A DNA stretch of 64,000 bases from Eukaryota sp. GEM-RC1 (taxonomy: Eukaryota): the NCBI GenBank assembly GCA_040285855.1, contig JAUFOQ010000006.1:1922001-1986000 (forward strand), in the 5' to 3' direction. Position 1 is the first letter of the stretch. Each line of letters begins with the position of its first letter. Below, piece by piece: positions 16,706-64,000 of the stretch. Under the pieces are notes generated by a model. It worked only from the letters and a program-made list of their open reading frames with translations, was not told where the DNA came from and did no database searches. The position numbers and the translations under genes are program-made.

Positions 16706-16853
16706 TACCCTGTTCTACGCTTATATTTGGACCATGCTTGTATTGGGACCTCGACGATAACATCAATATGTGGGGTTTTGTTTTCTTGTTGTGTGTTTTT
16801 CTCCGTACATGAATCCGCTTCTATACTTAGGGTTCTAGGGTGCATTCTTGCTT

Positions 16854-16944
16854 TGATACCGTTTGGCTACAAAGGGTAGGGAAAAGATGTTTATAAATAA
16901 AATAATATGATCTTTTAACACTTCACTAACACCTGTGGCTAACA
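16854..16944 (-). repeat. 3' LTR (91 bp)
   Basis: 90/91 identical to 23578-23668. Confidence 0.95.
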
Positions 16945-18255: not shown

Positions 18256-21200
18256 TATTGAACAATATTTCCAAACTTCGTTTCTTGTTTGGGTGTCCTG
18301 ACTGGACTAAGCCATGTAGCATGTAAAGAACTTTCTTTATTAAGCTAGATGGAATCAAAATCTTGTTCTTCGAGTTCATGTATACATTACTCATTGTACA
18401 CAAAGTTGAACCATTAAACAGTTGATCTCCTTGTTCTATCGCTTTAGATTGTTCTGACCTAATGGTGGATAACCAAGAGTCAAATAAAGGAAGTTTATTG
18501 TCTGTTGAGAGATTACGAAGGCACTTGATAGCTAATACGTTGGAGTCACGTGGAAGCATCTCAACATAGTCTGCATCATCATAAAGTAAGCCTTCATGAG
18601 AAAGGGTTAAATCACTTTTGATGGAAAGATTTGAGATCGTTAAAGATTTGATTGTTTCAACTGGGCGACGGTCAATGACACGTGATAACATGTCAGCCCA
18701 TTGATTGTTTGTACCAGCTACATGCTCTATCTCAAAATCAAACTCCGAGAAAATTGGAATCCATCGTTTGACAATACGATTCTTCTCTGGAGCTGAAATC
18801 AGATAAGCAAGGTTCCTATGATCTGTAAAGATCGTCAAATGCCTACTTAATAGGAAACCTTCTAAACTAGATTCGGTCAGAATCAAGAGAATGGCATACA
18901 GCTCTTTCTGGATAGCTGCCCAATTCTGTTGACTATCATTGAGTAAACGGCTATAAAACGATACAGGTCTAACTCTACGTTCTTCTAACGGAGTTCCTGG
19001 AGGAGCTGGGGGATTTTCTTCCTGCCAGATCACACCACCAACATCAATGTCGGATGCATCTGTGGATATGATAATGTTCTTATCAGTATCAGGTAAGTCT
19101 AAAGCCATATGGTTTATTATTTCGGTTTTAATTTTGTCTAATAAAGCATCATGGTCTTTTGTCCAAACAATTTTCTTGGGTTTACCACGAGTCAGTTTAT
19201 TGATTGATGCAGTCAAGTTCGAGTAGTTTGGAATCCATTCACGAACATAATTTAAAGCACCAAGTAAACTTCTTATCTCGGGTAAAGTTGAAGGAGCAGG
19301 TAACTCAATCAACGCCGAAACTCTTTTATCATCTATGCAACGGGTTTTATTACAAAAGTTGCTGCCGAGAATCTTATTAGGATGTCTAGAAGTGGTGAAC
19401 CTACACTTCTTCAATCCAATCCGTACTCTAAAACGTTCTGCTCGTTCCAGTACTAGATTTATTCTTGAAATAAACTCTTCAAAGGTATTGCCTACAACAA
19501 TTATATCATCAATATAAATGAAAACACCTTCGACATTGAAAATTTCCATCATGATGTTTTGAAAAATTGCTGGTACGTTTTTCAATCCAAAACATGCTCG
19601 TTTAAAGCTAATAGACATTCCAGGTATAGACACACTGGTCTTCTCGACATCTTCTTCAGCTACATTTAGCTGCCAGAATGCTTTAGGAAGGTCAAGTGTT
19701 CCAATGAAATTAGCTTTCGAAAGAAACTCTAGAACATCACAGATCCGTGGTAAATTTGGTTTCACCGGTCTGGTATTAGCATTAATCCCATCAAGTCCAC
19801 TGAAATCTCCAGTTAAACGAGGCTTACGGTGATCATTATAAACCACCAAGACTATGGGACTGCTGAACTTACCAGTTGATGGTACGGCCCATCCTTGTCG
19901 TATAAGTTCATTAAAAATTTCTTCGGCTATACGCTGTTTTTCAGGGTTAAGCCTTCTAGGAGGACGAAATACAGTGACACTTTCATCATAGAATGGAATT
20001 GTCATGGGTGGACAATCAATACCATCAGGATGTATATCTTCTGAAAAGACTTGTTTGTATTTACTGAGTAGGCTCAGAAGCTCCGTTCTTCTTGTAGAAT
20101 CATCCAATTCTATCGTGCAACCAGAGTTGTCAATGGTTTCTTCAAACAGATCTATATCTAATTGAGTGTTACCGTACTGATCAATAGTAAAATGTGTTGA
20201 ATTTGGTTTTATTGAACATTTTGATTGAACTCTATTAATCGAAATTGATGGAGACCTCATTCTCTCATCAAATTCACTCTCTGCATTGAGAATAGTGCTA
20301 TGTTCTTTATCTAATCTAATGACTAGACCATCATCCGAAAGCAACCCCAGTTCTTCTTGCAAGTCTCTACCAATGAGGAGAATTTTTGTTCCTGGAACTA
20401 CTGGTAGAGTATGCTTAACATGAATCTGGTTGGCCAAGCTGCCAACGTTGAACGTCAGAACACCTATTGCACTACCTAAGGAAGTAGCACGAATATTATT
20501 CGCTGAGATGTATTCAATACAACTATCAGTAGATGTCATCTCACAGTAGCGTATCAAATCTTGAGAAATGACTGAACATGATGCTGCTGAGTCAAATTCT
20601 CCTACTACTGGTACATTGTTGATTAACAATCGAATACATAAAGGACCCTTACCTTTAGAATCGAACCCTAGGTTCTGGTTGAGACTACGAATTGTTTCAA
20701 CAGATGATGTACTTCTACCCTTGCTTGAATGTGTGTTCAAAGCAGCCAATGGGTTCATGTACTTATGAGGTGTAGTGTGATTATCTCTAGATGTGTTATT
20801 TGTTGCAAGTCTGAAAATATAGTTATTCTGTTGTTTATTGGAACTAAAACGACGACTAAAAGATTGACTACGACTATCACCTGATCTACGTTTGTTGGAC
20901 TTTTTATCACTGTCAGATTGAGGTTTTGATCTACAATCAGTGGAGTAATGGCCCATTTTTCCACAGTTAAAACACTTAACCGTAGACTTAACATCTCCAG
21001 GTGTACCATGAGATTGAGAATGGGGCTTGTTTGCGGTATTTGGTCGATTTCTTCGATTTCTAGAAGGAAAACGACTGGAAGGAGTGGATAAGGACTTCAC
21101 AGCTGTGGAACGCTTGTAGGTAGTCCAGATCGATCTAACTTCTTGGAAGAATTGAGGTAGCTTATCATCCTCAGTTTTGAGACGATGATCCCATCTAAGA

Positions 21201-22429
21201 ACAAGTTCATTCAAAGCAATAATTCCTTTGTCAGGATTCAGTGTTTCTAACATCAACTCGGCTACTGTGGAAGCAGGGACCTTTGTTCGGACAGTTTCAT
21301 CACTCGACGTAGCTATCATCGCCATGGAACATTTGAGAACGCTAATTACGCCACGGAGGTATCGGTCAAAGCACTCAGCAGGGTCTTTGGAGCTACCCAA
21401 TCTTATTTCTTTAATTGCATCAATGGCTGTTGTAGTTGATGAGTATTGACTCTTGTTAATCAATAAACGCCAGATGTTTTGTTCAAGTACCTGACTACTG
21501 TTGTTAGTACCAATCAAATCTAACATTTTCCAATCATTCAAAGTTGTTTGATCTATGAAATGACTAATGCCAGCTGGATCAATTTCACACAATGCTGTCC
21601 TAGCAAGGTCGAATTTGTTCAAAGGAGTACCAATCCAGAGGTCATAATCGAAACGTTCAGTTTGTTTTCTGACATGAATGGCCCAATGAAAGAAGTCATG
21701 AATAAACTTCACAACCTCATAACTAGTGTCGTTTTTCAAGAACGGCTCTCTGTCTTTTTTCTTCTTGATCTTCTTGGGAGGAGTCACACCAGATGAGAGA
21801 ATAACAGAATCATGAAGGACATTGTCAGGACGTTCATCTTCAGAGGATTGACTAAGGTCGATGTGATTTTCAATCGATGGAGACAAATCAGGAAACTTGT
21901 TTGATTGTCTATCTCTTTCTGCTTTGGTTTTGTTGGCTTCAGCAATCAACGCGTTTCTATGTCGAATTTTCGGTTCTTCGAGTTCTTTTTTCGACATGAC
22001 TTTTGATTCTTGGTTCAAATCACGAGTGAAGTTCTCGGTTACACGGTAAACGTTTTCATGTTCTTCACTGGCAACAAACCGATCAACGTCTCCAAATTCT
22101 CCATCAAACTTTCTAGTTGAGAGAATATCACGTGAACCATCAGTGAAGCGGTCAACAGATTCTGGACGGAAAGGTTCACCAGGAACGTGAGCAGAAAGGC
22201 GAGCAGTTTGACGTAGCTCTTCAGGCTTGGGAAGAAGTGTACCAACTTCTCGTAAAGCACCATGAGCAACAGGAAGGACCTTTTGAGATCCACCAATGCC
22301 ACTAAACTGTTGGACAACCACAGAACCTTCATCAGGAACAGCTAAGGTCGTGTTTGATGCTTCCAAAGGTTGACTGTGGAAGGTTTTCATATCTATGACC
22401 AACGGGAAGGTGTCTAGAACTAACAGCAA
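18224..22429 (-). CDS. Gag-protease-RT-RNase H polyprotein
   Basis: CFNCGKMGHYSTDC zinc knuckle; FDSAASCS protease; LDLPKAFWQ, FGLKN and YIDD RT; TDASD, KELYAI and FTDHRNL RNase H. Confidence 0.95.
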   Translation of the reverse strand: MLLVLDTFPLVIDMKTFHSQPLEASNTTLAVPDEGSVVVQQFSGIGGSQKVLPVAHGALREVGTLLPKPEELRQTARLSAHVPGEPFRPESVDRFTDGSRDILSTRKFDGEFGDVDRFVASEEHENVYRVTENFTRDLNQESKVMSKKELEEPKIRHRNALIAEANKTKAERDRQSNKFPDLSPSIENHIDLSQSSEDERPDNVLHDSVILSSGVTPPKKIKKKKDREPFLKNDTSYEVVKFIHDFFHWAIHVRKQTERFDYDLWIGTPLNKFDLARTALCEIDPAGISHFIDQTTLNDWKMLDLIGTNNSSQVLEQNIWRLLINKSQYSSTTTAIDAIKEIRLGSSKDPAECFDRYLRGVISVLKCSMAMIATSSDETVRTKVPASTVAELMLETLNPDKGIIALNELVLRWDHRLKTEDDKLPQFFQEVRSIWTTYKRSTAVKSLSTPSSRFPSRNRRNRPNTANKPHSQSHGTPGDVKSTVKCFNCGKMGHYSTDCRSKPQSDSDKKSNKRRSGDSRSQSFSRRFSSNKQQNNYIFRLATNNTSRDNHTTPHKYMNPLAALNTHSSKGRSTSSVETIRSLNQNLGFDSKGKGPLCIRLLINNVPVVGEFDSAASCSVISQDLIRYCEMTSTDSCIEYISANNIRATSLGSAIGVLTFNVGSLANQIHVKHTLPVVPGTKILLIGRDLQEELGLLSDDGLVIRLDKEHSTILNAESEFDERMRSPSISINRVQSKCSIKPNSTHFTIDQYGNTQLDIDLFEETIDNSGCTIELDDSTRRTELLSLLSKYKQVFSEDIHPDGIDCPPMTIPFYDESVTVFRPPRRLNPEKQRIAEEIFNELIRQGWAVPSTGKFSSPIVLVVYNDHRKPRLTGDFSGLDGINANTRPVKPNLPRICDVLEFLSKANFIGTLDLPKAFWQLNVAEEDVEKTSVSIPGMSISFKRACFGLKNVPAIFQNIMMEIFNVEGVFIYIDDIIVVGNTFEEFISRINLVLERAERFRVRIGLKKCRFTTSRHPNKILGSNFCNKTRCIDDKRVSALIELPAPSTLPEIRSLLGALNYVREWIPNYSNLTASINKLTRGKPKKIVWTKDHDALLDKIKTEIINHMALDLPDTDKNIIISTDASDIDVGGVIWQEENPPAPPGTPLEERRVRPVSFYSRLLNDSQQNWAAIQKELYAILLILTESSLEGFLLSRHLTIFTDHRNLAYLISAPEKNRIVKRWIPIFSEFDFEIEHVAGTNNQWADMLSRVIDRRPVETIKSLTISNLSIKSDLTLSHEGLLYDDADYVEMLPRDSNVLAIKCLRNLSTDNKLPLFDSWLSTIRSEQSKAIEQGDQLFNGSTLCTMSNVYMNSKNKILIPSSLIKKVLYMLHGLVQSGHPNKKRSLEILFNSGYFWPEYES

Positions 22430-23561
22430 CGTTGTGATACGGATTGCTCAAGCTTTGACAATACCACGCTGAGTAAGCATACGTAACGTATCTACCATCG
22501 GCATCGAAACTAGGTTCCAATGGTTCAATCAAGATACCATGACGAGGATCCCATGAGTAATCCGAGGGATAACGATACGTATCCACAGCATCTCCATCAT
22601 ACAAATCACCGAGAAAGCGTTCAATAACTTGAGGGGAAATACCTGGAGGAACGTTCCTCAACAGATAGTGCCGTCTTTTAGGCATACGGTTGCGGATGAC
22701 AGGATGCCAAGGAGCGAACTTCGCCAAGTGCCACATGTCGTAATCAGAGATACCAACGCTGTTGTCTTGTGGACTTACCCAGCTATTTGGGATAGCATCC
22801 TTATGGAAGTGCTGTTCCTCAATAGACCCAACTAGCTCTTCGACTTTGTTGCCTCGATCTTCTGGAGAGAGACTCATCTTACGAGCTAGAAGTTCCTTTT
22901 CAACAAGAAGCTTCTGTTCTGCTTCGAGTCTTCTAGACTGCTCTTTGGCGAGAGATTCCTGTAACTTGCGAATCTCTTCAACCACTTCAGTTGACCTCTT
23001 TTGAGGAACTGGAACAACATCGGGAATGCTTTCTTTATTAAAACTATTTCTACGAGGAAGAATAGGGAGAGGAGACGCTGTTACAACAACATCATGAATC
23101 TCGGAATGCGGAGTACTGCTACTGTCAGCATCGCTTACTCTATACTTCTCTAACAAGCTTGGGATACGGTCTGAAATTACAGAGGGAGTATCCAAACCCA
23201 CTTCGCCATCCTTGCGGGAAGACGAAGTCCTTCCATCCTCAGATGGGCATCCACCTTCAGGTTGAACATCTACAACTCTACGAGAAGTAGATTCACCAAC
23301 CTCAGGTGAGATTTCCGTCACCTCCTTGTGGGAAGTGGGGCTTCTATCCTCAGATAGGCATCCGTCCTCAGACAGGCATCCATCCTCAAATGGGTCACTT
23401 TCAAAGTCCGACGAGTCAACTGACTCTTCTGTCTCAGGAACCAATGGCTCCTTTCGACGGGAAGACACTTTGGAGCTAGACTTAGATCTAGTCAAAGGTT
23501 TGTTTCTACGATTAGTTTTGTTTCCCGCTTTTGGGGGGTTAGTAGTCCTTTTCTTCACCAT
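22332..23561 (-). CDS. Upstream ORF1 of the gypsy element, unknown function
   Basis: ~409-aa ORF with ATG at 23561, just inside the 5' LTR boundary: basic N-terminus, acidic EDGCLS repeats, coiled coil and an aromatic-rich C-terminal domain. Overlaps gag-pol, which is in the +1 frame. Confidence 0.8.
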   Translation of the reverse strand: MVKKRTTNPPKAGNKTNRRNKPLTRSKSSSKVSSRRKEPLVPETEESVDSSDFESDPFEDGCLSEDGCLSEDRSPTSHKEVTEISPEVGESTSRRVVDVQPEGGCPSEDGRTSSSRKDGEVGLDTPSVISDRIPSLLEKYRVSDADSSSTPHSEIHDVVVTASPLPILPRRNSFNKESIPDVVPVPQKRSTEVVEEIRKLQESLAKEQSRRLEAEQKLLVEKELLARKMSLSPEDRGNKVEELVGSIEEQHFHKDAIPNSWVSPQDNSVGISDYDMWHLAKFAPWHPVIRNRMPKRRHYLLRNVPPGISPQVIERFLGDLYDGDAVDTYRYPSDYSWDPRHGILIEPLEPSFDADGRYVTYAYSAWYCQSLSNPYHNVAVSSRHLPVGHRYENLPQSTFGSIKHDLSCS

Positions 23562-23577
23562 CTTGGACAATAATTAT

Positions 23578-23668
23578 TGATACCGTTTGGCTACAAAGGG
23601 TAGGGAAAAGATGTTTATAAATAAAATAATATGATCTTGTAACACTTCACTAACACCTGTGGCTAACA
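23578..23668 (-). repeat. 5' LTR (91 bp)
   Basis: Direct repeat of 16854-16944, followed by TSD GCTT (23669-23672; left copy 16850-16853). Confidence 0.95.
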
Positions 23669-49666: not shown

Positions 49667-51582
49667 GTATGAATCATTACGTAAACCGTAACGTAATTGG
49701 TGTACAAAACACCAATTCTGTTTGAACGCTGTGTGGAATTTGATATATGGTTGAAGGTGTTGTATTATTTCTCAAGGAGTTGTAGTGTTTTTCTTTGTTT
49801 GTTGATCAAGATATTTGATTTTTATGAGAATAGACCAACTATGGGAGATTTACTAGTGATAAACTGCACAATAATAGATGAGAACAAAACTAAACCGCAT
49901 GTATTCGGAATTTTTGAGGACGGATTACATACGACATTTATACACCAGACCAGTTAGCCGTTGAATATGTATAGTTCATTGTGAGCGTCACTTTTGGTAG
50001 ATAGCTACTACTGAGACATCACATTTAGCGAGATGTGATGAGTTTCAATTCAGAAGAGCTACAAAATTCATGTGTTTTATCGCCAGTTGAGAAGATGATT
50101 ACATATACCAAAACCAATGTCACTAATACTGTTGGATTCTCTAGTAACCTTTATAAATCTGGGGTTTTCATTTTAGTTGCATTTTAGAACCCCATTCAAG
50201 AACACCACTACGAAGAACACTTTTTCTGTTTTCTACCTATCAACATACATTCTGTAGCAAAACATGCTAGTCCCTATGTCCCATTGTTTGTGAGGACCCT
50301 TAATCATGAAGAACCATGCTTCAAACAACAAAGCTCGTGTTATACATTGCTCTCAGTACCTGACAAACGTTCCTACATAGATCTAGAACTATACAATGCC
50401 TCATCGGTGCCACAGATATGGATATGAGTGTTGTCATCAAGTTTGTGTATCCACATTATGTTTTGTCCTCTGTATATGTCTGTAACAATACTAAAAACCA
50501 ACAACATATTTGAGGGTCCCTATCTTATATAAAAACAGACATTTTTCATGTTATTTAACAGATATCTATGGGTCTTTATTGAAAAGATTACAAGCCGATA
50601 TGGATTAGAGTTGCCGTTGACTGGACTCGAGTCAAAAACTCTAAGTACACTCGGGCACAGACTCGAGTCGCGCCGATCGTCACACACACAAACCAATTGT
50701 TCTCAAGTGAAGAAGATGTTGACCTCTTTGTCAACTTCGAAAGGAGTTGGGGTATAAACATTGAGTACAGGAACCTGGAGTACATAAATAAGAATGTTCC
50801 TTGTCAGGCTACTGAAAAATTGTACAAACTAAGAGACTGACGAGATGAAAGAGTGGGCGGAGGAATGTTAAAAGGTTGACCACTGTCTTCAGGAAAGATC
50901 AGAGGCTTCTTACATGGAGGGGAAACAATTTGATGGGCTACAACATGGAATTACGATGAGCATAAATCTGCTTGAAGGACGTAATGAAGAGAGGGGGGGA
51001 ATGGTTGGTTGCTCTCAGTCTTGAAGACATGAAAGCAGGGGATTTAGAGAGGGTAGATCTTGAGAAGGGTAGATCTTCTGAGCGAAATAGAAGACTTGAA
51101 ACGATAGAAGATTTCTGAGATCTCGGAAACAAACTGTAAGGAACAAAACTCTTTCGGGAAGAATCAGTGTAAACGGTACAATGAATCCAGTCTTCAGGAT
51201 TGTATTAAGCTTCAATAAGTGATGAAATCAAGACCAACATTCGGATGACAAGATGTCAGTTGTACTTACTGATAATTCATTCAAGATCTCATCAGCACCA
51301 GTGAAATCGTTGGTTGAGAGAAATGGAGGATCTTCTGCTTCGGCCGAAGATGCTGAAAGGCGAAAAGACGAATTGAATCGAACATGTAGAGATGGTGTCT
51401 TCTTAGTAAATGTAGATAAGACATCCCAAAGTAAAATTAAAAAGAAAGATATATTGACAAGATCAACCTATACATTGTCCATGTAGAGGACACTGAAAAG
51501 TGAAAAATGAAGACAATCGTCAATAAATGTCTTGACTGACATGACACTGTAGACACATCTATAAATACCAACAACCCACAAA

Positions 51583-52127
51583 ATGGTCCATTTTTTTGCT
51601 CACATGTCGATGTTCATTGATTCGACGGCTATGAGAGGCCTGTTTTTGGTGGGAAAGTCATCCTATCAAATCAGGTGGAATTCTACAGAAGCAACTTCTG
51701 TAGATATCTTGTATCCATACAGCCTGGGTGGGACCGGGCGGCAATATGCTATTCAAAGGCATCATTGTTCAAGCAAAACCCCAAGGAAGGCATTTTTGGT
51801 CATTGATCCAATTCAATCCAAATTTTTTATTTTTTCGAAGTCGAGGGTTTTTTATGGGAGTATGTGTGTTGTTTTTGGCAGTCAGGCCTATCATTTTTAC
51901 ATGCCCAGCATGGTGATAGAACCACCAGGGCAACACACTGCTTTCCAGCCCCCAAACTTGCCTCCTTGTAAAATTCAGTGGATCGGTGGTGGTGGTGGTG
52001 GTTTTGGTGGTGGTGGTGAAATTTTATTGAAGTGTCGTTTTTGCAAATTTCTGTCAGTTTTGATTGTAGACTGCAGTTCAAAATTGATCTTACGTCTGAT
52101 GGTGATGTGGAATCCAATCCAGGTCCA
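51583..52127 (+). CDS. Putative leader polypeptide (Gly-rich) ending in a 2A-like peptide
   Basis: ATG at 51583 follows TATAAATA (51560). ORF 51583 joins the 2A frame if one base is added after 52020 (e.g. T-run 52022-52025). No recognisable domain. Confidence 0.35.
52086..52127 (+). other. 2A/StopGo ribosomal skipping peptide motif DLTSDGDVESNPG|P
   Basis: Exact D(V/I)ExNPGP consensus (52104-52127) with the upstream DLTxDG typical of viral 2A peptides; same strand as, and 128 nt before, the exonuclease-Fanzor ATG. Confidence 0.8.
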
Positions 52128-52255
52128 CAATCTAATCCCAATTCTGATCCCATCGGTACAAGATTGAGTGTTCCTTTTATTCGACTTGATGATTCGACTT
52201 CCATTGTTCCCCCCTGTTAAAAAAAAGTCGAGTTGATAGTAGTTCTAGTCCTCCA

Positions 52256-55200
52256 ATGTCCAATCTCGAAATTTTAGCAAGAGTTGCCAAAAAGGCTCAA
52301 GTTGAGGCCAAATCGCGGAGAGCTCCCTTGAAAATTAATGGACAACGCCTGTCTAATAGAGTTTTTCCTGCTAAGAAATCTTGTCTCAAAGCTTTGAGGA
52401 AAATTAAGCCACATGACAACAACGAAAAACAGAATTTGATTGAATTCGGATGTGCTCAAGAACACCCTAATACTTATGCTCTTCCAAAAATTATGTCTAT
52501 TGACCTGGAGACAATGCATCATGATGATGAAATTCCAACAGCTATTACGGAGGAATTTAGTAAGCTTCGAGGAAAGGAATCGCTGAAGTTAAAAAAGATG
52601 AATTCAGAAGAGCATGATCGATGGATTGCTAGCCAAAAAGTTATGTCAGTTGCATTAATTTTTGGCCGTTTTAATGAAGAAAATTTTTACGAAGAAAAAT
52701 CAATTATTATCTGTGTCAACCTTTGTGCAACAAACCTACCTTCTCCAATTGAATGCAGTTTATCCCCAAGAACTGAAATCTATGTTGTGCCCAATGAGTT
52801 GGTCCTGCTCCATATATTGATGGACGTGATTCAAGATTACCAGCCAAATTTCATTACTGGTCACAATATTATTGGATTTGACTTCAAAGTTTTGGAAAAG
52901 CGTTTCCAGTTTTATCAGTTCCCATGGCCTGTTAATGTCCAAGAATCCAACCTTAATCCTTTATCTAAAAACTGGCGTGAAGTTGTTAAAAATAAACACG
53001 GATACTTGATACTTGATACTTTATTGTTTGCAAAACGTTTTCTCACAATGAAATTTGGAAACGATTTACCATCTCTTACACGAAATCTGATACACGAATT
53101 TTGTCTCAGACTTAAAAAGGAAGAACTTGGAAATCTTTTGCCCATTGATTGTTGGTGTGAAAGTACACTGGTATCTCTCTTAGTTGATTACAATTATCAA
53201 CACGCCAACTTAACTTTAAAACTTTGTATGCTCTTTCAGAGAGAAAAATTTATTCTTCCAACTTATAGAATGGTAAAGTCTACTCTTCCACGAATTTTGA
53301 AGCATCGTGATGTCTTTGAAAACATTGTGCAGCTAGCACCTCAATTTCACGAACTTCGTCGCCATACCCTACAGTGCCTGCAATTGTTTTTATCAGCAAG
53401 ATTTGAACGTGGCGAAGCGTTACCTGAAATTACTGAACAAATGATTACGTCTGTAATGACTCGAATAAATTATCTCTGTGCCCAATTTTATGGTCAGCCC
53501 TATAAACGGCCCAGTAGTGCAATTGATGCGGACTTAGAACGATTTGTCATGGGAAAAGCACAATTCGACAGCAACTCAATTCACAAGGGCTATCGTATTC
53601 AGTTAGAAGCAAATGAAGGCCATAACTTTCCAATGTTTCCTCCTCAAGGCTTCTCTAGACCACCAGAATACATTGCTCCAGTACTCCTGTGTAACATTAA
53701 CAACAACTTGAAACTCCACTTTGAAAAACATATTAATCGTTTCATTAACGTATATTTTGGAAAAAACAGTCTGAAGAAGAAATTTCAAATTTAATTAAAG
53801 AGCTGCCAAAAGAAGAACGACCTGATTGTCAACAAACTTTAACTTTGTATCGTTTTGCTCTTCGACAGATTAAAGACATTTTTACTGCTGAATCTGTCGA
53901 TAACTTCAACTTGTTACTTTCAAATCAATTTTGCCTAGAAAAGTTTGAAGAAGATTGGAAGGATAAAGCAGGGGAAAAAGGAATGACACCTCACGAACAA
54001 GACTTTTTATACGATGCCTTTATTTACCCGTATGTCGTTGAAAAATTTGAAATTTTGCAGAGATCACCTCCTTTTGAATTAAGAGTGCTTCGACCATTTA
54101 CTAAAATTTTGGAACTCGAAAAAAAGCCTCAATTATTCATGCCGGCAGCCATAACTATGAATCGTTATGTGAAGGAGAAAGAAGCAGCGGCTTTTCATTG
54201 GTTTCCCGCTGTAACCACGGTAATCCCAGGCTACTTTCCTATTGATACTAGAACTTTGTGGAGTATCGTTAGGCAAAACAAAAAAACCAAGGATCTGAAG
54301 TTCATGAACAACCAGGCTGAGGTGACCAAGTTCAAACCAAAAGACCAACATGATTTTTGGAAAATGTTTGTAAACTTCGATTTAAAAGAATTCAAAAAGA
54401 AAGATTATGTGTTCAACAACATTATCCACAGTGACGGTCAAAACTGTTCACTTGAGTTAGTTAGGCGTGACTTTGCTGGTGAAAAAGAGGTAAGGATGAT
54501 TTACAAGGAAAGATTAAAGAAGTTTATTGTAAAGACTTGAGAGCAGAAAAATTTACAACAAAAAAAGTAGTTGTCTGTGACCCTGGAAAAAGGGATCTAC
54601 TTTATTTTGGTGTAAGAAATGAAGAACAAATTCAAGAAAACAAGTGTAATTGGCTGCGACTGACACAATGCAAATGGACTGTGGTAGCAAGAAAGCAACA
54701 ACACCTGCTAAAAGGTGCCAGAAGAAAGTTCAAAGTTAGACCATCAAGAAATAGATCAAATCAAGATTCTGAAAGTACTCCACCGCTCACAATTGAAGAA
54801 ACTGATAGCTTGCTTTCAGGATTAAGTCCAAAATCTGCCACGTTTGCTGATCTCGAAGCTTGGGTCCAGGCCAAAATGAAACAAGTGACGTCAACCGCTT
54901 GGTTTTACTGTTCTGCCTTATGGCGCATCCAAAAAATGCGTTCCTACATCCATAAGCAGAAAGTAGAGTCCTGGTTGTTGAAGTCACTCGAATCGACTTT
55001 TGGACGAAGAAGAGAAGAACTACTGATCTGTATGGGTGATTTTGGGGCAAATGGTCAAGTAAATTTGAAACATCACAGACCGACAAGAGGAATCGGATGG
55101 CGGTCTTTCTTGAGAAGAAATGGATTTGAAGTCGTTTTATTGAATGAAAAGAAAACGTCCAGTTGCTGCCCAGATTGTGAAAGTGAGGTGAAGAAGTTCC

Positions 55201-55404
55201 ATAAGATCGAGAATCCAAGACCCTACAGAAGAGAAAAAACTCCAAAAGTGCTTTTGTCATGGTCTACTTGAGTGTCGAAGCGAGAATTGTAGAGGATCAA
55301 GCGAGAGAAAGTATTGGAATCGTAATCAGCTTGCGTGTTTGAATATGTTGAGAATAGTAGATGGGTATAGAGAAGGAAGAGGAAGACCTGAATATCTCTC
55401 GTAG
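52256..55404 (+). CDS. Family-B DNA polymerase 3'-5' exonuclease domain fused to Fanzor1 (TnpB-like RuvC), ~1,050 aa reconstructed
   Basis: ExoI SIDLET, ExoII GHNIIGFD, ExoIII YNYQH. Then Fanzor1 blocks: MVKSTLPRILK, NNLKLHFEKHINRFINVYF, WFP..TVIPGYFPIDT, IHSDG.CS, RuvC-I VCDPGKRDL, GDFG..PTRGIG, RuvC-II LNEKKTSSCCPDC, HGLLEC..C, RuvC-III WNRNQLACLN. Three single-base breaks in A/T runs (~53761, ~54482, ~55252). Confidence 0.88.
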
Positions 55405-55545
55405 TTAGTAACGTAGTATAACTTTCCCCGGAGGGAGTATGCAGAGATGTATACTGTATTGCCTTCGGATTTTGTAGAGTAATTAAGGAAGATGTGTGAA
55501 AACAGTCCTCGGACTGAGTAGAAATGCATTTGAAATGAAATACAC
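55405..55545 (+). ncRNA. Putative Fanzor omega-RNA scaffold (locus 1)
   Basis: Directly 3' of the Fanzor stop. Hairpins AGTATGCA-GAGA-TGTATACT and CAGTC-CTCG-GACTG. Block ATGCATTTGAAATGAAAT(A/C)CAC is shared with the second Fanzor locus. Confidence 0.7.
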
Positions 55546-55679
55546 CTTTAGATTTGAAATTACGAGCTTGTCGTTTTATCAACGGATGTTGTCTTGACAC
55601 ACTTTATACATCTGACACAATAGTTATCATGAGTCAAAAGAGTCAGTGTTACACGAGTTCATGTACATGTAGTATGAAT

Positions 55680-56269
55680 CATGGAACGCAAATGTTCCGT
55701 ACCGCGGCGATTTTAGGCGTACCGTACCGTACCGTACCGTACCGTACGTACGTACGGTACATGTACCGGTACTGTACTTGGGACCGACTAAAATCAACCA
55801 TTACTGTTTTGAACATGATTATCCAATGTGAGATTTTAACAGTTACCATCGTCATAAATTCTACCGTTAGACATTGCTCAGGATATCAAAATCCTGATTG
55901 TCACATCTATTCAAATTTAGGGTACGTCATTTGCTGACCACAACTTCCCCAAAATGAGTTGTTTACGTAAGAACCTCAGCAATCGCTCGAAATCAACAAT
56001 AGTAGTAGCTTCTTCGAATTGCAATGCATTTATTGAGTGGCTACGACGGAATATAACAATGATACAGGGCCCAAAAACCCACAGATTGGATTTCTAAACG
56101 ATCAGATGATGCAGTATCAATTGGCACTAGTACTGTGTTTGACTAGTGAATCTCAAAAAATAGTATTTGTAAATCCATTTCGATCATTCATAAATAGGCT
56201 TTTTATAAAATCAAAGGACATCGGTACGGATAAAATAAATCGGTACGTACCAAAGATTTGCGCACATTG
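55680..56269. mobile_element. Degenerate hAT-type MITE, 590 bp
   Basis: Weak TIRs CATGGAACGCAAAT / CAATGTGCGCAAAT; flanks GTATGAAT / TAATGAAT (6/8); left (CGTAC)n repeats mirrored by CGGTACG on the right. Confidence 0.5.
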
Positions 56270-56669
56270 TAATGAATACACACGAATAATAAACACTTTG
56301 ACTTATTGTTCGGATGTTTGAAACTTATTCAGAACGACAGGCGATGCTACAAACTTGAGAAGAATTTAACAAAGCAGTTTAACTTGCAGATGACAAAACT
56401 TGTAGATCTAAGTCTACTTAATTCGGAACATGTCATCTTCAAAAATCTAGCAACAACACTTGTTCTGTTACAACAAATCTATCTCTCAACTTCTCTGTAT
56501 ACCAGTACATTGTACCACAATACGATTGGTATAAAAGACATTAATAATTGATGTATTATATCAAACAAATTTAATGAATACACCGTAAAAATCGCTGTAT
56601 TTAACAAACTTTAAATAAAAGAGCAGAATAAAACCAATAAAATAAAACACTAAAAAATGTACATGACCA

Positions 56670-58355
56670 CTAATCCATTTGATAATTGAACTGAGAATAA
56701 ATATAATGAAGAATATCGGATCGAATTTCATTATCTTCAAGGTTAATGCTAGTCAAAGTATTGTTACTCCTAAGAGTTGAAGCTATCATTAATGCTCCCC
56801 GACTAGTTATTCCTGTATCCAAAAGATTGAGAGTTTCAAGAGAGGTATTAACCTTGAGAAGATCGCTCCACTCCTTGGCACCAGCATCACCAATGTTATT
56901 GAACCACATATTTAAAAATTTTAAATTTGTGTTTTCCTTTAACCCATCAATGATAGCCTTGAGACCTCGCAAATCTATTCCATTGTCGCCTATTCGAAGA
57001 TGACAAAGCGGATGATTTGATTTTAAAATATCTCCAATAATTGAAATACCTTGAGAACCGATATTATTTGTCTCAATACACAATGAAATTATCCGTCCAC
57101 TGTCTCTAATTGCCGAGAGAATCTCCTGAGATCCTTTAGGTCCAATGTGATTGTCCCCCACATCAACATTACTCAAACTACAGTCTTGACTTCTCAAGAA
57201 ATCAGCCAGAACAATAGCACCCTTTTCTCCAAAGTTATTTTCTCCTAAATCAATCTTGGTTACTGATGTGTTGACCTTCAAGGCCTTAATCAGATTCTTT
57301 AAACAACATACATCGACTCCAGTATTCCTCAAACCAATAGATTTAAGAACGTTATTGTGTTCTAGCGCAGTGCATATATAGCCAATGCCTTCAGTACCAG
57401 CATCAGTGAATCTAAGATCAAGGTCAATCAAACTTGTGTTTGATTTGATTAGGTTTCCGATTGCCATTACACCCAGCACGTCGAACGAATTCTCACCAAT
57501 CGAGAGCTCTTTTAATGTCGTATTATGAGCTAGTGATTGAGCTATGGCAGTCGCTCCTTCATTCCCTATACTGTTAACTCCTAAATCAATAGAAACAAGT
57601 GATTTGTTTGCAGTCAAAGCTCCAGCTAAAGCGAAAGCTCCTTCGTTCTTGAACTTGTTACACCACAACTTAAGCGACGACACAGACTTATTGACCTTCA
57701 AAGCATCTGAGATCAACCTGGCTCCTTTTCTCCCAAACTTGTTCGTCCCCAGATTCAAATCAGTGAGAGTGTTGTTTGATTGAATTACAGAAGCTAAGGC
57801 AGTGGCTCCCTTACGTCCAAGGTCGTTGCAACGAATGTCAAGAACTCTAATGGAAGTGTTACTAGCTAGTAGAGTGCAGAAGGGTTCTATGAGATCTTTG
57901 GTTATGCTACGGATAAGGTCTATTTTAATGAGATTGGGGCAGAAGAATTTGGATGAGGGAGAGATGAGATCAAAGCTAGTACAACGAAGTTCAACCATTG
58001 AGACAGAAGAGAGGGGGAAAGGAAGGGAGCTAAGAGATTGAAGGTCAGGAAGTTCACCAAGTTCAATATGAAGGGGGTCTACGTTGAACATGTTGTAGAA
58101 GCTACGCCAAGCTTGATATTCTTCAGAACCAACAACAATTGTACGGGATTGTAGGATGGAGCGAGTAATAGACATACATGAGTGAAAGAAGCGGTTACTT
58201 ACAAAGCCGTAGTTTGAGAAGAGTTTTGATATGGATGATGTAAACTTTTCGGTCCAATATAGACCAGGTAAACGGTACATACGACCATAGCAGTGTTTTA
58301 ACACTAAGAAAACAATACTGTCAGAGCAATAGAAAGAAGGACATTCAATTGGCAT
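56670..58355 (-). CDS. RNI-like/NLRC3-like leucine-rich repeat protein
   Basis: About 14 28-aa repeats of type N.TL..L.L..N.IG.EGA.AIA.AL; likely start MPIECPSF at 58355. Confidence 0.9.
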   Translation of the reverse strand: MPIECPSFYCSDSIVFLVLKHCYGRMYRLPGLYWTEKFTSSISKLFSNYGFVSNRFFHSCMSITRSILQSRTIVVGSEEYQAWRSFYNMFNVDPLHIELGELPDLQSLSSLPFPLSSVSMVELRCTSFDLISPSSKFFCPNLIKIDLIRSITKDLIEPFCTLLASNTSIRVLDIRCNDLGRKGATALASVIQSNNTLTDLNLGTNKFGRKGARLISDALKVNKSVSSLKLWCNKFKNEGAFALAGALTANKSLVSIDLGVNSIGNEGATAIAQSLAHNTTLKELSIGENSFDVLGVMAIGNLIKSNTSLIDLDLRFTDAGTEGIGYICTALEHNNVLKSIGLRNTGVDVCCLKNLIKALKVNTSVTKIDLGENNFGEKGAIVLADFLRSQDCSLSNVDVGDNHIGPKGSQEILSAIRDSGRIISLCIETNNIGSQGISIIGDILKSNHPLCHLRIGDNGIDLRGLKAIIDGLKENTNLKFLNMWFNNIGDAGAKEWSDLLKVNTSLETLNLLDTGITSRGALMIASTLRSNNTLTSINLEDNEIRSDILHYIYSQFNYQMD

Positions 58356-59759
58356 GATGAGGAAGGGAAGAAGAAGTAAAATTTGAAATCTCTTCGATTT
58401 GCTAACATTGGGTTTTACAAAATTAATAAAGACAGAGGTATAGATAGACACAGTAACAGTACTGTGTCTCAGGTGACCTCCATTATTAGACTGCATACGT
58501 AGCGTTATCGACTACAATGTACATGTATATCTCCAAATTGACATTAACAACAACCATTTGAAAATTCACCCGAACAGTCGATTAGTACTGGACAAAACTT
58601 CAACTGCAAGGAGAGCACTAAGTGACTGTTGTTATAAAACCAGATGGATGGAAAATTTGAAGCAACATTTTGAAAGGAAGTTATTTCCGTGAATCACTCG
58701 AACTGATATATGTTATGTTTATAGACGAAGTGGACGACAATATATGTCAAAATAGAATATATGAAACACTAGACGGAAAATTGTAGGTCAAAAGTATTTT
58801 AGTTCTTTTACAACTCAACTCCGTGATAATTGATTTAACATTTCTAGGGGTAGATCGAAACAGATAAAAAACTCAAACGGTTATCCTGTTTTTCAGTTGT
58901 TTCCAGATCGTGAAAACATTTTGAAGTGATGATGTTAACATATATTTGACCACATTAGATGTATTGTTGTAACAGCAATAATTATTTGACTGGAATCAAC
59001 AAAAAGGACCATGTAGGGCAGCTCGACCAGAATTATTAATCAAATCAAGACCATTCTTATTAATTTGTATTTAAACATCCATATATCGTCACAGAGTTCC
59101 TTCTATGAGAAACACTCTGGCAGCACGAGTCCAGGAAAACAAGCTGCAGCGTTTAAGTGCAACTTCTAGAGAATCCAAAAACATCGACTTATCATCAAGT
59201 CTTATTATCAAGAACTGCCATTCTGTCAGAAAGGTTTCTGAAAAAGCACTACAATAGTCACGTTTAAGTTTTGTGTTACACTGTATTCAAGTGGATAACC
59301 TCATTATTGCATATGTAATTATGTAAAAGAACTAAAATTTGATATCATCAAAACAACACCCGTCGCTATCAAATCGTACAACAGCTTTGTTCTCATAAAA
59401 GGAACTCACAGCTAGTAAAACGTTGGTGGACATGATAGGAATTGTTTTAAAAAACTGTAGAACCGACGCGGTTCAACAATAACATAAGATGAATACGTAA
59501 ATTCATAAAGGGTTAGTTCATTCAGATTAACCATTTTCACAATCAACTCAATGAATAGGGATCAATTTGGATGTTTGATCTTAATTTGGTACTTGAAACC
59601 AGTATAAGAATAGTCAACACAGTAGAGGCTACAACGAATGTGTATGGTCCAATTTACGTGTAATATAATCTAGGTGTAGAAACTAAAAAAACGGGGTTTA
59701 TGATCAGTCAGTGAAATAAATGCATTTACAGAAGTTAATAACTAACAGACACTAACTAA

Positions 59760-60602
59760 AGTATCTAAACTATGATCCTTCTGTCCATCATCGAACAACT
59801 TACCTAAAATTGAATTATAATATCTGTGCATTGAACGAAACAACGCAAAAATATCCTACTCAACCAAAAATTTTCATTGAAAACTTTACCGTACCCAGAA
59901 CACAATTTACCAAAGGAAGTTAAAAATCTTGTGCAGCTGGTCCAATATTACCGTATATCGACATCGCAAAAGGTTGAAACACAAAAGAATTGTACCTGTC
60001 AACATTCAACTGGTTAATTAAGTGACAGTACTTTGTTTTTTTTCCTTTTCCAGCCACTTCAAGAGCAGAAAAATCATCATCAAAAATTTTGGAAATTGAT
60101 CTTGAATTACAAGGATCAACAGTCGTGAAATCCATGATAATTTCCTGACAAGATAACCAAGGACCAATCAAATCACCACGACTTCTATCAACTTTTGGCT
60201 GATCAGAAAGATTAGCAAGTAAAGGTTTAATTTTTCCATGAAAACCATTAGCCTTAAACATATCCAAACATGTATCCCGGATACCGTTGTGAATAATTGA
60301 TCTAAAATGAATAAATTTATGACAGTTAACTAAATGATGAAAATTTGAAGCCTTTGAACGACCACAAAGACATGGAGAATGCTTCAAAAGACCTGAAGGC
60401 CATAAACCTAACCTAAGTCTCATGTTTATACACCATTCATGATCCTTAAGATTAAAACAAAATTTTCTTGACCAACGAGAAACAAATGAAGACGCAGTGC
60501 TTGAAGAAATATCATTCAAAAAGCACAAAAAGCGGGACTCTTAGTGCGGGACTCTCTTGCCAAGCTAATATATGTAGAAACTTAATCAGTGAGTAAACAC
60601 CC
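59760..60602 (-). mobile_element. 3' fragment of a CRE-like non-LTR retrotransposon, abutting the Fanzor locus 2 end
   Basis: ORF 59920-60528: WCINMRLRLGLWP, CLCG..HLVNC, IHNGIRD, RGDLIGPW and FQPFAMSIYG. Upstream TATTAGCTTGGC (ISLA) matches the 464-2140 copy. The 5' boundary is uncertain (60570-60602). Confidence 0.75.
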
Positions 60603-60706
60603 GTGGATTTCATTTCAAATGCATACACCTATATGCACTATCACCACAGTTTGACACATTGTGCCACTCATTTGCAAGCCTTTTAGGACGAGCTAACTTA
60701 TAAGAT
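60603..60706 (-). ncRNA. Putative Fanzor omega-RNA scaffold (locus 2)
   Basis: Directly 3' of the Fanzor stop. Hairpins ACTGT-GGTG-ATAGT and TGCATAT-AGGT-GTATGCA; shared 18-nt block at 60607-60624. Confidence 0.7.
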
Positions 60707-63700
60707 TCAGGATTCCGGTTCTTGATTCTCTACTTGTGAGTCTTTGGGTACATCTCTCTGGGCCTTACTTGGGCAATTTCTTCTATCATGTCCTGGTTGT
60801 CTACATATCGTACATGTACGAGGACTTTTAGGAGGCACAGGTCTTTGAGGACACTTTGCCGTTGTATGGCCTTCCATATGACAAAACTGACACTTACTCA
60901 CACTCTTCTTCTTGGGAACCTGATCTGTAATCCCACCATCCTCGATAGTTATTGTTTGAGATTTTGGTCTCTCGAGGACAGCAGGTCTACCTTGACCTTG
61001 GATAATTCCATTTACAATGTTATAAATGTTAATAGCAGAGTTGAAGTCTCTATTCCAGCGGACATGACATTTAGCACACTGAACTAAGCCCCATGGTGAG
61101 ACTTTGTTGCTCTTCAATCTTTCTTTCATGAATGGCAACTGTTTGGTCCATTCATCATCAAAATTACGTTTCACAACATTGCCTAATTGATTGTGTTCCA
61201 TCACTTCTTTTTTCAATTTCTTCTCCTCCTTCTGTAACTTCTTCTTCCACAGAGGATCAATGACTTTGACAAAGTCAGGATTGGAACAGATACCTTCCTG
61301 GTCTTCAGCAGCACAAGCAGAGCAACATTTGCTTGTCATAAATTCATCAACTAAGAAAACTTTAAATCCAAATTTTCTTAGTAAGTTTCGAAGAGTAGCG
61401 CCTTTTACTGTACTTGCCTTACCCCTTCTTCTTCGGAATTGAGTGTCATTCCAATCCCCAAAACCAACAACGACTTCATTGGGATCACCATATTGGAGAG
61501 CTAATCTGTGGACCAAGTTTTGTTCCCTTCGTTCTTTTCTTGAATATTGGGTAAGGCGTCTACGTCTAAAAAATTTTTCTTCATAAAGGCCTTCTGTTGT
61601 AGCAGGTATTTGTTGAGTTGGTCCTTTCTTAGGTAGTTTCTTTGATGGTCCTTTCTTAGATAGATTCTTTGATGGTCCTTTCTTTTGATGTAATCCTTCA
61701 GCAGTTGCTTTTCCAGTTGTGGTTGATCTCATTAATGCACAGAAAACTTCATTGTTAACCATGTATCTTGAAAATTCTTCCAATTTACATGATTTTCTTC
61801 TTGGAGTATCAGAACTGTAGGAATCCAGTATTTTCTGACCATTCCACACACTCTTCTCAAACTCAGTTGAGTACCTCTGTAATCGTTCACTTTCGGTCAA
61901 TTTGACAATTCCTCTGTTGCCACGTTTCCTTTCAAGTTTTTTGAAATTTCGTTTTTCCTTTCGTTCCTTTTTAGCTTTTTTTCTTTTTTTGTTTCTTTGT
62001 CAATTTTTTTGGAACTGTGATGGCTGATTTTTTCTTGGTTTCCATCTAGATTTGTTAATATCTGCCTTTCTCTCCCCAGCAGTGTATCGGAACACCTTCC
62101 ATTTGTCACGCCTTTTCCACTTTACAGGTTGTGGGTTAGTGTCTTGCTTCCAATCATTTAATTGTTTTTTCATTTTTTCAAACTTCCCCTTTTCTTAGAA
62201 GATAATGGAGCAATCTTTCTTTTTCTAACTAGGGTAACTGGCTTGGGCTCAATTTCCTTCTCACTTGAGGAATCATCCTTCTCAACTGAGGAATCAATAG
62301 ATTGTTCATTGGAAGTAAGATCAATTTCTGTAACACAAGCATTGGCCATTCCATTTTCTATCAATTGTTTTGTTTCATCGACTTCAAATTTCTCACACGC
62401 CTCTTCCTCATCAGTTTTTAAACTGGCACAATACATGAGATCATGTTGGTTGGGGTCAACAGCAACAATTCTCTTAGATTTTAAATTCAGCTCTTCAATT
62501 TCATCTTCACTTAAGGAATCAATATAACGCTCATTTGAAGCAAGATTAACTGCTATAACATTTTCACGGGCATTTCCATTTTCATCAAGTAAATCTTTCC
62601 TCATCATCAACAAACTACAACTTAAACCGTCTGACAAAATTGAAGTGTATTTAAAGTCATAGGATAATGACTCTGGAATAGCCTGAGGTTTTAATACTGA
62701 ATTCCAAATAGGTTTCCGTACATCATTATAGTTATAGGGAAGATCCCTACAAAATATTTCGTGAAACCATTGCGTATCGAACCTGATATGATTTGGAATT
62801 AAAGATTTAGACAACGGGAAAGGATTGTTTGCTCTTACACCAGGACAATAGTCTTCAATGAGACGGTTCAAATATAATGCATGACTTAAAAAGTATAACG
62901 GATCACTCTTTTCGGCATAGTAGATCGTTTTCTCCATCTTTCCTTCAAAATAATTAAACAAATAATTGAAGAATAATATACTCAAGTGAGATTCCGGATT
63001 GGTAAAAACTTGCTTGTCATCAAAATTAATTTTGGAAATTTCACCATTAATGATCAATTCTCTAACTTCATTAATCCTTTGACAGAGTTCTTGTCTTTGG
63101 GTTTTGTCAGTAAGAGCTTCCATTCTCTCTTTCTTTTGAGTAACCAAGTTAAAGACTTGAAAAACATACTCATGAAAGTGTTGGCTCATGTTGTTCTTAT
63201 AATTAGTAATAATTTCGGTTGCAACGTAACCGAGAGGGTTAGACAAATATAGTCCACTTGGAAACACGATCCTATCTCTGCCAACCATTTCACCAGCAGT
63301 TTCTAACAGAGGGATGTAGTTTGATAGGAAGTGTTGGGCGAACTCCTTCTTTGTAGTTGTTGTTTTTGCATTAGAAATGATGTTTTGTAAAGAGTTTTCC
63401 ACAGTTTTAATATGATCAGTACTGTTGAAAAATTGGTGATTTGGAATCCACATCATGGCCAACAGTTGTGACATTGGAGTCAACTTAAAGTAAGCTCCCC
63501 AGTCTGGTAATTCAAATTTGGTAGTTTGAATTTTAGTAAAAAGGTCAAGTTCAGGTTCACCAGTTTCATTTTCATCACCGTCTTCTTCTAAAATATGGCT
63601 GTCTTCTTCTGAAATTTCGGATTCAATTGTACGATCCAAACCAAAATCAGGGTCTGAAGTCACAGGCAATTCAGTTTCTTCTTCTAATTGTTGAGGCACA

Positions 63701-64000
63701 AACTCTTCACTTAAAACTTCTGTTTGTTCAGTGTCTGAAACTTCTGTGTCTGTTTCAATTTCTTCTTTAACAGTGAAAATGTAGTCAGATGGAGGTAGTA
63801 TCTCTTTGACCTTGTCGAAAATTAGAGAGTTGTGAAACTTAGTTACGAAAAAATGTTTCAACATATGAGTACCACGAACTCTGACTTGATGAGCTCTCTT
63901 AGCACAAGACTCCATCCAATTGGCTTTAGTCTTTGATACAACATTATCTAATCGTTTCTTCACTGTCTTCAATGGTGGTCGTTCTCTTAATTTTTGCTTC
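60707..64000 (-). CDS. Fanzor1 (TnpB-like RNA-guided RuvC nuclease) with two C-terminal CCHC zinc knuckles; 5' end outside window, ~1,100 aa or more
   Basis: KTVKKRLDNVV, YVATEIITNYKNNMSQHF, FPLSKSLIPNHIRFDT, ILSDGLSCS, ERYIDSL, RuvC-I VAVDPNQHDL, VFRYTAGER, FGDW, RuvC-II VDEFMTSKCCSAC, WGLVQCAKC, RuvC-III WNRDFNSAIN. Breaks fall in poly-A Lys-rich tracts (61900-62200). Confidence 0.92.

Follow-up and report, generated by a model that had tools for sequence, protein, structure and literature searches.

We have found that two highly divergent Fanzor1 genes of Eukaryota sp. GEM-RC1 carry in their 3' flanks a nearly identical 22-nt motif, which probably represents a mariner-type inverted repeat (a remnant or still working); both genes would then share a transposon end that also supplies the 3' part of their omega-RNA scaffolds. 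Both genes lie in the window, by which we mean the whole stretch of 64,000 nucleotides that was analysed. An element end that doubles as the 3' part of a scaffold is an already known arrangement, and the omega-RNA scaffold itself is an expected feature of such loci; what appears to be new is an exonuclease-Fanzor1 polyprotein, which we describe at the first of the two loci.

Two Fanzor1 genes from separate lineages

52256..55404, + strand: locus-1 exonuclease-Fanzor1 gene, in four frames, with RuvC D at 54579, E at 55143 and N at 55324
60707..64000, - strand: locus-2 Fanzor1 gene, its 5' part beyond the window, with RuvC D, E and D intact

Judged by sequence both genes are Fanzor1, and nuclease activity is predicted for them. 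Each encodes the RuvC-I Asp and a RuvC-II Glu six residues before the C4 zinc finger, and the closest solved structures for both are SpuFz1 and PpFz1 (E 1e-10 to 1e-19), not Fz2 or TnpB, one of the two structure comparisons having been queried with the relative P0028. A preliminary description of this DNA had called the two genes very divergent, and indeed their RuvC regions are 27% identical and they fall into separate clades (support 0.999 and 0.995) in a tree of 116 columns and 103 of 105 sequences. Proteins nearly identical to these, which bear the NCBI label Eukaryota sp. GEM-RC1, fall into clusters of 14, 26 and 7, where one member each of the clusters of 14 and 7 may be the window copy itself. 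The two genes belong to separate multi-copy lineages.

The RuvC-III residue is Asp at locus 2 and Asn at locus 1. We rule out the Asn as a sign of decay, since it is clade-wide (P0060, P0210, P0211, P0071 and P0072) and is known in GtFz1, where it is compatible with activity according to the available text of PMC11423790. Frameshifts lie near 53764, 54485 and 55255 at locus 1 and near 62185 and 62005 at locus 2, with a homopolymer run at each, and the other copies are frameshifted at different positions. Such frameshifts fit, rather than prove, sequencing error, the alternative being decay. The accessible part of PMC11316075 describes GEM-RC and TZLM3-RCL as Skoliomonas isolates and states that Nanopore reads, corrected with short reads, were used to assemble such genomes. 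We also note that proteins of the locus-2 family end in a C-terminal tail, possibly RNA-binding, in which two CCHC knuckles lie (60892-60851 and 60814-60773, - strand), that the P0002/P0028 family has one such knuckle, and that in the locus-1 clade the predicted protein P0075 joins Fanzor to a DM10 domain, perhaps through insertion into a host gene.

A motif shared by the two 3' flanks

55524..55545, + strand: shared 22-nt motif, locus 1; core at 55527-55537 like the subterminal block of mariner-type Fanzor1 ends
60603..60624, - strand: shared 22-nt motif, locus 2; 21/22 match to the locus-1 motif

The 18-mer ATGCATTTGAAATGAAAT, reported earlier as exact in both 3' flanks, has just two exact copies in the 64-kb window, at 55524-55541 (+) and 60607-60624 (-), and is followed at both loci by (A/C)CAC, as had also been stated, so that 21 of 22 nucleotides are identical. 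It begins 119 nt past the Fanzor stop at locus 1 and 82 nt past it at locus 2, and when the two genes are compared as DNA, the best match lies here (E 2e-4). The sharing is beyond chance: the longest word common to random pairs of 250-nt windows is 15 nt (more than 15 nt in 0 of 2950 pairs), and none of 100 shuffles contained two matches to the core pattern. The RATGTGT-x-AAA element described upstream is present at both loci as ATGTGT-N-AAA, 32-35 nt before the motif, with one further occurrence in the window. The stem and inner hairpin proposed between these elements are likewise found at both loci; the pattern occurs in 226 of 50,000 random 60-mers, a figure that flatters it because it was defined from these very sequences. 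Since both loci have ATGTGT-N-AAA together with this rare stem-hairpin pattern, the two flanks appear homologous over their final ~55 nt, and the combination probably reflects constraint at the RNA level beyond that on a DNA end.

Outside the window, the exact 18-mer gave eight matches in viral contigs, which is chance level, and the 22-mer pattern occurred at two loci in prokaryote genomes; none of these adjoins a Fanzor. Three viral 17-nt matches to locus 2 lie inside a phage coding region and were set aside as chance.

Likeness to IS630/Tc1-mariner element ends

The motif core CATTTGAAATG is similar to the subterminal block found in inverted repeats of the IS630/Tc1-mariner type, and it is for this reason that we regard the motif as a likely element end and 3' part of the scaffold. 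In a giant-virus Fanzor1 omega-RNA the same 11-mer core lies ~30 nt from the 3' end, with no TAM given (PMC10432273). We scanned the best 80 of 262 viral Fanzor1 loci, which are close kin and not independent; 76 have enough flank and 51 flanks are distinct. Within this set of the best 80 of 262, nearly all distinct flanks (49/51) close with CATTTTAAATC-N5-GGGTG-TA-like sequence 41-103 nt past the stop, an inverted copy lies upstream in 26 of 44 testable elements, and the elements are flanked by TTTA/TAAA or TATA, at a TTTAAA-like target (24 elements). Eight of nine ORFs tested in these best 80 loci encode a DDE_3 transposase, all of them directly inside the left repeat, the ninth ORF lying outside it. 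A metagenome set of 29 loci, from which 12 were dropped (five without the C-terminus, two short, five duplicates), had a mariner-type end at 10 of its 17 distinct flanks. The window core followed by GGTGT has at least 133 matches in at least 126 viral loci; among the matches listed, 108 have the viral spacing and one lies behind a Fanzor, as seen in the flanks of the 80 loci only. With so many viral matches and one behind a Fanzor, the core plus GGTGT appears to be a general transposon end.

55541..55561, - strand: inverted-repeat-like sequence over the previously proposed guide 1; 17.8 bits, tied best in the window
50141..50185, - strand: candidate degenerate left inverted repeat of locus 1, aligning to 55522-55566; suggestive

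A two-block matrix of the viral end gave its two top window sites, at 17.8 bits (the next scored 13.8), at 60621-60596 (-), in the correct orientation for locus 2, and at 55561-55541 (-), inverted at locus 1. The chance level is 0.43 such hits per resampled 64 kb, or 113 in 20,000 given the 18-mer. These figures apply to a matrix in which the spacer could vary over a range chosen with the window already in view; in the viral ends the spacer is fixed at 5 nt. A subterminal block like CATTT(T/G)AAAT(C/G) is present at both loci. In place of the fixed 5-nt spacer, GGTG and TA, locus 2 has an 8-nt spacer and GGGTG followed by TT, and locus 1 lacks a sense-oriented GGTG; we therefore describe the window ends as like, or derived from, mariner ends and do not file them as members. 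A covariance model of 29 viral ends placed neither locus among its 14 matches at E up to 10, and the 64-kb window holds no DDE transposase.

For an inverted left copy, locus 1 offers the degenerate candidate at 50141-50185, and the left end of locus 2 lies beyond the window. The candidate is the top gapped match to the locus-1 end among 1684 tiles and is best or tied in four of five scoring schemes; its match beyond CAC is weak by itself (556 of 20,000 when anchored). It has no clear flanking target duplication, and in an ungapped search for a left-end copy of the motif the closest sequence had 5 mismatches in 22.

The viral elements (L009-L088) showed two further features. A long-range helix pairs the terminal repeat and duplication with sequence at the end of the ORF, with double changes at one pair in 5 of 29 sequences, and there is a covarying hairpin too; these helices supply a usable scaffold model. 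In some of the elements, moreover, the transposase is separated from the Fanzor by a gene of MUG113 or NUMOD-like type.

Predicted folds of the flanks

55407..55566, + strand: candidate omega-RNA scaffold, locus 1, predicted; 3' end at 55549-55566 preferred over 55545
60594..60706, - strand: candidate omega-RNA scaffold, locus 2, predicted; terminal GGGTG-TTTA at 60602-60594

The flanks had been put forward as omega-RNA-like, and both do lie 3' of the ORF, the expected position of Fanzor omega-RNAs; the resemblance of the motif to mariner-type ends makes it likely that they are right ends. At locus 1 the predicted fold consists of a stem at 55428-55468 capped by the GAGA hairpin, a stem at 55490-97/55524-31 around the hairpin at 55503-55516, and a closing helix at 55412-17/55559-64. 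The hairpins named previously all exist in the sequence, as does the GAGA stem (55436-55455); a stronger basal stem (55428-34/55462-68), with a pair probability of 0.96, had been overlooked. The fold predicted at locus 2 comprises a hairpin at 60666-52, a stem at 60649-44/60606-01 and a hairpin at 60639-18, and here ATGCATT prefers a nearer partner, at 60639-31 (probability 0.82-0.96). Pairing of RATGTGT with ATGCATT, as first suggested, belongs to the minimum-energy fold at locus 1 but at locus 2 is less stable than the best fold by 9.5-10.1 kcal/mol, and the two flanks cannot be said to share one preferred shape; a bound protein could still select the suggested fold at locus 2. Folding of the two flanks showed no significant gain over shuffles (z -1.45 and -0.34), and an Rfam search of them gave no match above noise. 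ORFs that span the flank were judged spurious and are absent from the protein collection, in which one of ten look-ups gave an entry.

It is possible, though in our view unlikely, that RNA binding explains the sharing of the motif: both proteins would recognise one RNA feature, the RATGTGT/ATGCATT fold would form in both RNAs and CAC would be the boundary. Such a reading would account for the halt of flank identity at CAC, for the presence at both loci of a rare stem-hairpin pattern whose inner hairpin has changed fully, for the optimality of the suggested fold at locus 1 and for the failure of the viral covariance model to find either locus. It does not sit well with the penalty of ~10 kcal/mol at locus 2 or with the signals that pass CAC at both loci. 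Moreover, 18 invariant bases would not be expected from RNA binding alone by proteins that are 27% identical, because published Fz1 scaffolds vary widely past the first stem (available text of PMC11423790). The earlier notion of a conserved scaffold is therefore kept in so far as the flank ends look homologous, but not as a matter of RNA only, since origin as a transposon end explains the sharing at least equally well.

The scaffold likely ends past CAC

Similarity had been said to stop after CAC, which was taken as the boundary between scaffold and guide. Pairwise identity of the two flanks does end there; CAC amounts, however, to three matching bases after a mismatch, and with only two sequences compared it cannot be fixed as the boundary. 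At locus 2 CAC is directly followed by GGGTG-TTTA, like the viral Fanzor1 end GGGTG-TA(A/T)A. Predicted helices pass CAC by 2 nt at locus 2, where the stem 60649-44/60606-01 spans it with a probability of 0.41-0.95 depending on the folding window, and by 4-19 nt at locus 1, where helices extend to 55549 or 55564, with probabilities that reach 0.67 and 0.90 in some folding windows and are lower in others. Because GGGTG follows, helices cross and the alignment with 50141-50185 runs to 55566, both the CAC boundary and the guide predicted from it at locus 1, CTTTAGATTTGAAATTACGA, are doubtful; that guide itself scores as inverted-repeat-like and aligns to the candidate left end. The scaffold likely ends near 60594 at locus 2 and at 55549-55566 at locus 1, as far as the sequences indicate, and the guides would therefore start there. 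Fanzor1 scaffolds that contain the inverted repeat and the target duplication are described in the accessible portions of PMC10711439, PMC13565253 and PMC10432273.

The surroundings of the motifs

59675..60582, - strand: 5'-truncated, T-tailed repeat copy, not a Fanzor element; 10-bp target duplication at 60573-82 and 59675-84

An attempt to place the locus-2 end through an interrupted neighbour gene was abandoned, since the neighbour proved to be an independent insertion, 20 nt past CAC, that carries a duplication of its own. This repeat, at 59675-60582, belongs to a 37-member family (proteins at 90%) and is likely a non-LTR retrotransposon; the 37 proteins resemble what we take to be the C-terminal endonuclease region of non-LTR elements. 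The same family recurs at 300-2140 and 14739-15870, and three 330-bp tandem copies of a related repeat piece lie at 464-1420. Elsewhere in the window we noted a palindromic 87-bp MITE-like element with GTACC repeats at 55709-55795, 140 nt past the locus-1 end; an LTR retrotransposon at 16853-23660, with repeats at 16853 and 23577 and ORFs that we labelled by eye as gag-like knuckle, protease, RT and integrase-like; and at 24680-48694 (-) a very large gene, repetitive and surface-protein-like, which contains long tandem duplications and numerous frameshifts.

Sharing of the motif might also have arisen without a shared transposase, through a single swap of 3' ends (by recombination or gene conversion) or through capture of a host DNA signal. 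That only two copies are compared, that the window lacks a transposase and that Fanzor elements with exchanged parts have been described (available text of PMC3627910) are all in keeping with such an event. We nevertheless think it quite improbable: the upstream parts have diverged and the 18-mer is exact, which suggests constraint, and the resemblance to viral ends would have to be a coincidence. Harder still to credit is a separate 5.1-kb element (55524-60624) between the tail-to-tail Fanzors, with the two motifs as its inverted repeats and the ATGCAT palindrome as its duplication. Formally the motifs do make an inverted pair that is 95% complementary, but the interval contains an LRR gene and an independent insertion with no transposase, similarity reaches outside the pair toward the Fanzor stops, and the orientation fits Fanzor right ends. 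Insertion of a second element at the TA in the locus-1 motif is a minor possibility, against which no partner repeat is found downstream. A chance match in AT-rich DNA, for which the viral and prokaryotic copies away from any Fanzor might be cited, is effectively refuted by the random pairs and shuffles above and by the same position and strand of the motif behind homologous genes.

An exonuclease-Fanzor1 fusion with a 2A-like motif

52481..53245, + strand: DNA-polymerase-B-type 3'-5' exonuclease domain (PF03104, E 1.6e-16)
52086..52127, + strand: 2A-like peptide D-V-E-S-N-P-G-P, the only NPGP in the window's six frames
51583..52167, + strand: 194-aa ORF with a glycine run and no known family, following TATAAA at 51560

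At locus 1 the Fanzor is preceded by an exonuclease domain with motifs at 52496, 52859 and 53189, which we take to be the ExoI, ExoII and ExoIII of PolB-type (DEDDy) exonucleases. ExoI has D-x-E, ExoII has N-x3-F-D, and the fold is that of a PolB exonuclease; in the Y-x3-D of ExoIII, His replaces Asp in the window and in all five near-identical copies that cover the site. Because of this replacement the exonuclease activity of the window copy may be weak or lost. The ExoIII Asp is kept in P0060, P0210, P0211, P0212, P0065, P0067 and P0070. Five of the seven members of the locus-1 cluster have the exonuclease domain, and P0044 is unbroken as far as RuvC-I, so the junction is no assembly join; the frames from exonuclease to RuvC are also unbroken in P0060, P0210 and P0211.

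A search of 1.84 billion representatives returned 256 relatives; among the 150 of these that were listed, eight have the exonuclease domain and seven of the eight match the Fanzor profile. Three proteins labelled TZLM3-RCL, P0060 (1281 aa), P0211 (940 aa) and P0210 (1846 aa), are whole and have all exonuclease and RuvC motifs, P0034, labelled TZLM1-RC, retains the end of the exonuclease domain, and the fusion clade spans at least three labelled isolates. The predicted structure of P0211 (mean pLDDT 82.6, pTM 0.64) matches both Fz1 structures and polymerase delta (~260 columns).

The 2A-like motif of the window agrees with D(V/I)ExNPG-P and has a GDVE core, following the definition in the available text of PMC12338488, where no Fanzor is mentioned. 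It is out of frame with its neighbours and lies next to homopolymer runs. In P0210, P0212, P0067, P0068 and P0101 a 2A-like motif stands in frame before the exonuclease, the E position deviating in two relatives, and in P0210 and P0212 Ulp1 protease domains lie between the two, which makes P0210 a 2A-Ulp1-Ulp1-exonuclease-Fanzor polyprotein of 1846 aa. The 194-aa ORF, absent from the protein collection, may be the leader that precedes 2A in the polyprotein.

A viral scan with P0211 gave no exonuclease-Fanzor fusion, and neither the fusion nor a 2A motif was found at any of 109 viral and metagenome Fanzor loci (the viral ones being the best 80 of 262); two exonuclease matches at these 109 loci are long separate ORFs, not fusions. 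In the literature, covered by titles and abstract openings with Repbase, most supplements and subscription journals outside the scope, we found no fusion of an exonuclease or 2A motif with Fanzor. Term searches of the available text of PMC10432273, PMC10691335, PMC13565253 and PMC6338049 gave none, nor did those of the available text of PMC10711439 and PMC10530073, for which 'exonuclease' was not among the terms. Repbase or the supplements may list such fusions.

Discussion

If the motif is indeed a transposon end, a common transposase that recognises it and acts in trans would keep the motif alike while the proteins diverge; alternatively, one element family may have captured both Fanzor genes. 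The flank would be transcribed together with the gene, fold and bind the Fanzor, and ~15 nt of flanking DNA would be taken as guide. The Fanzor could then cut the empty site left after excision so that the element is restored, in line with a model in which cleavage of the vacated site by the nuclease promotes restoration (PMC13565253, in its available text). The locus-1 Fanzor might be released from an upstream leader through 2A ribosome skipping. Where relatives have kept their catalytic residues intact, the exonuclease could trim the ends of the guided cut, and trimmed ends would hinder simple re-ligation and so favour copying of the element; we infer this trimming role. Put together, we entertain, at slightly less than an even chance, a protist RNA-guided endonuclease with a built-in 3'-5' exonuclease, freed through ribosome skipping from a virus-like polyprotein composed of a leader, 2A and optional Ulp1 proteases, and using an omega-RNA end that is a domesticated giant-virus mariner repeat common to unrelated Fanzor families. 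If true, a transposon has evolved a cut-and-trim nuclease, in free-living protists.

A motif common to two distant Fanzor lineages makes it testable whether the transposase or the RNA is the keeper of element ends, and also whether the two proteins can exchange guides. The exonuclease-Fanzor1 fusion outweighs the scaffold in importance, since intact full-length representatives of 940-1846 aa are ready for expression; it would reveal how a transposon shapes the repair of its own guided break, and the 2A-Ulp1 polyprotein layout suggests an unrecognised mode of Fanzor expression. The parts of the fusion have precedents in other elements. P and piggyBac elements have DEDDh nucleases (PMC3627910), LTR polyproteins have DnaQ-like domains (PMC6338049) and non-LTR elements have 2A peptides (PMC3708506), in none of which, as far as the available texts go, is the part joined to an RNA-guided nuclease.

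Among characterised systems, SpuFz1, PpFz1 and GtFz1 (PMC10432273 and PMC11423790, available text) are like both loci in the RuvC Glu six residues before the zinc finger, in a 3' flank, here with predicted structure, at the probable element end and in being multi-copy, and SpuFz1 is matched by the predicted structure of the relative P0211 with a target TM-score of 0.79-0.82. Their scaffolds have no sequence likeness, by eye, to the window flanks. In contrast to these systems, locus 1 adds the N-terminal exonuclease and 2A-like motif, locus 2 adds the two C-terminal CCHC knuckles, and the window loci are without a perfect inverted repeat pair. Unlike Fanzor families with alike termini are known from within one genome: CRe-1, 2 and 3 share theirs with Helitron2, and DFa-1, 2 and 3 with Sola2, a sharing explained by one mobilising transposase (PMC3627910, accessible part). 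Here the superfamily is another one, merely ~22-55 nt are common and the partner transposase is only presumed. Compared with the giant-virus mariner/IS630 Fanzor1 elements (PGv-1 type, available text of PMC3627910; L009-L088), locus 2 has a longer spacer and no TA, locus 1 no sense GGTG, neither a transposase in cis, and the distance from stop to end exceeds the usual viral 41-46 nt. Of 44 viral and metagenome ends (the viral ones from the best 80 of 262 loci), 18 have a closing hairpin of at least 5 bp, against 5.6 in shuffles; at locus 2 the hairpin that closes on the block is 7 bp long, and a simple hairpin of this kind is missing from locus 1. Both loci have the end block CATTT(T/G)AAAT(C/G) of the giant-virus elements, and the preferred fold of locus 2 has its parts in the order of the viral end: hairpin, AAA, stem, hairpin, block and GGGTG.
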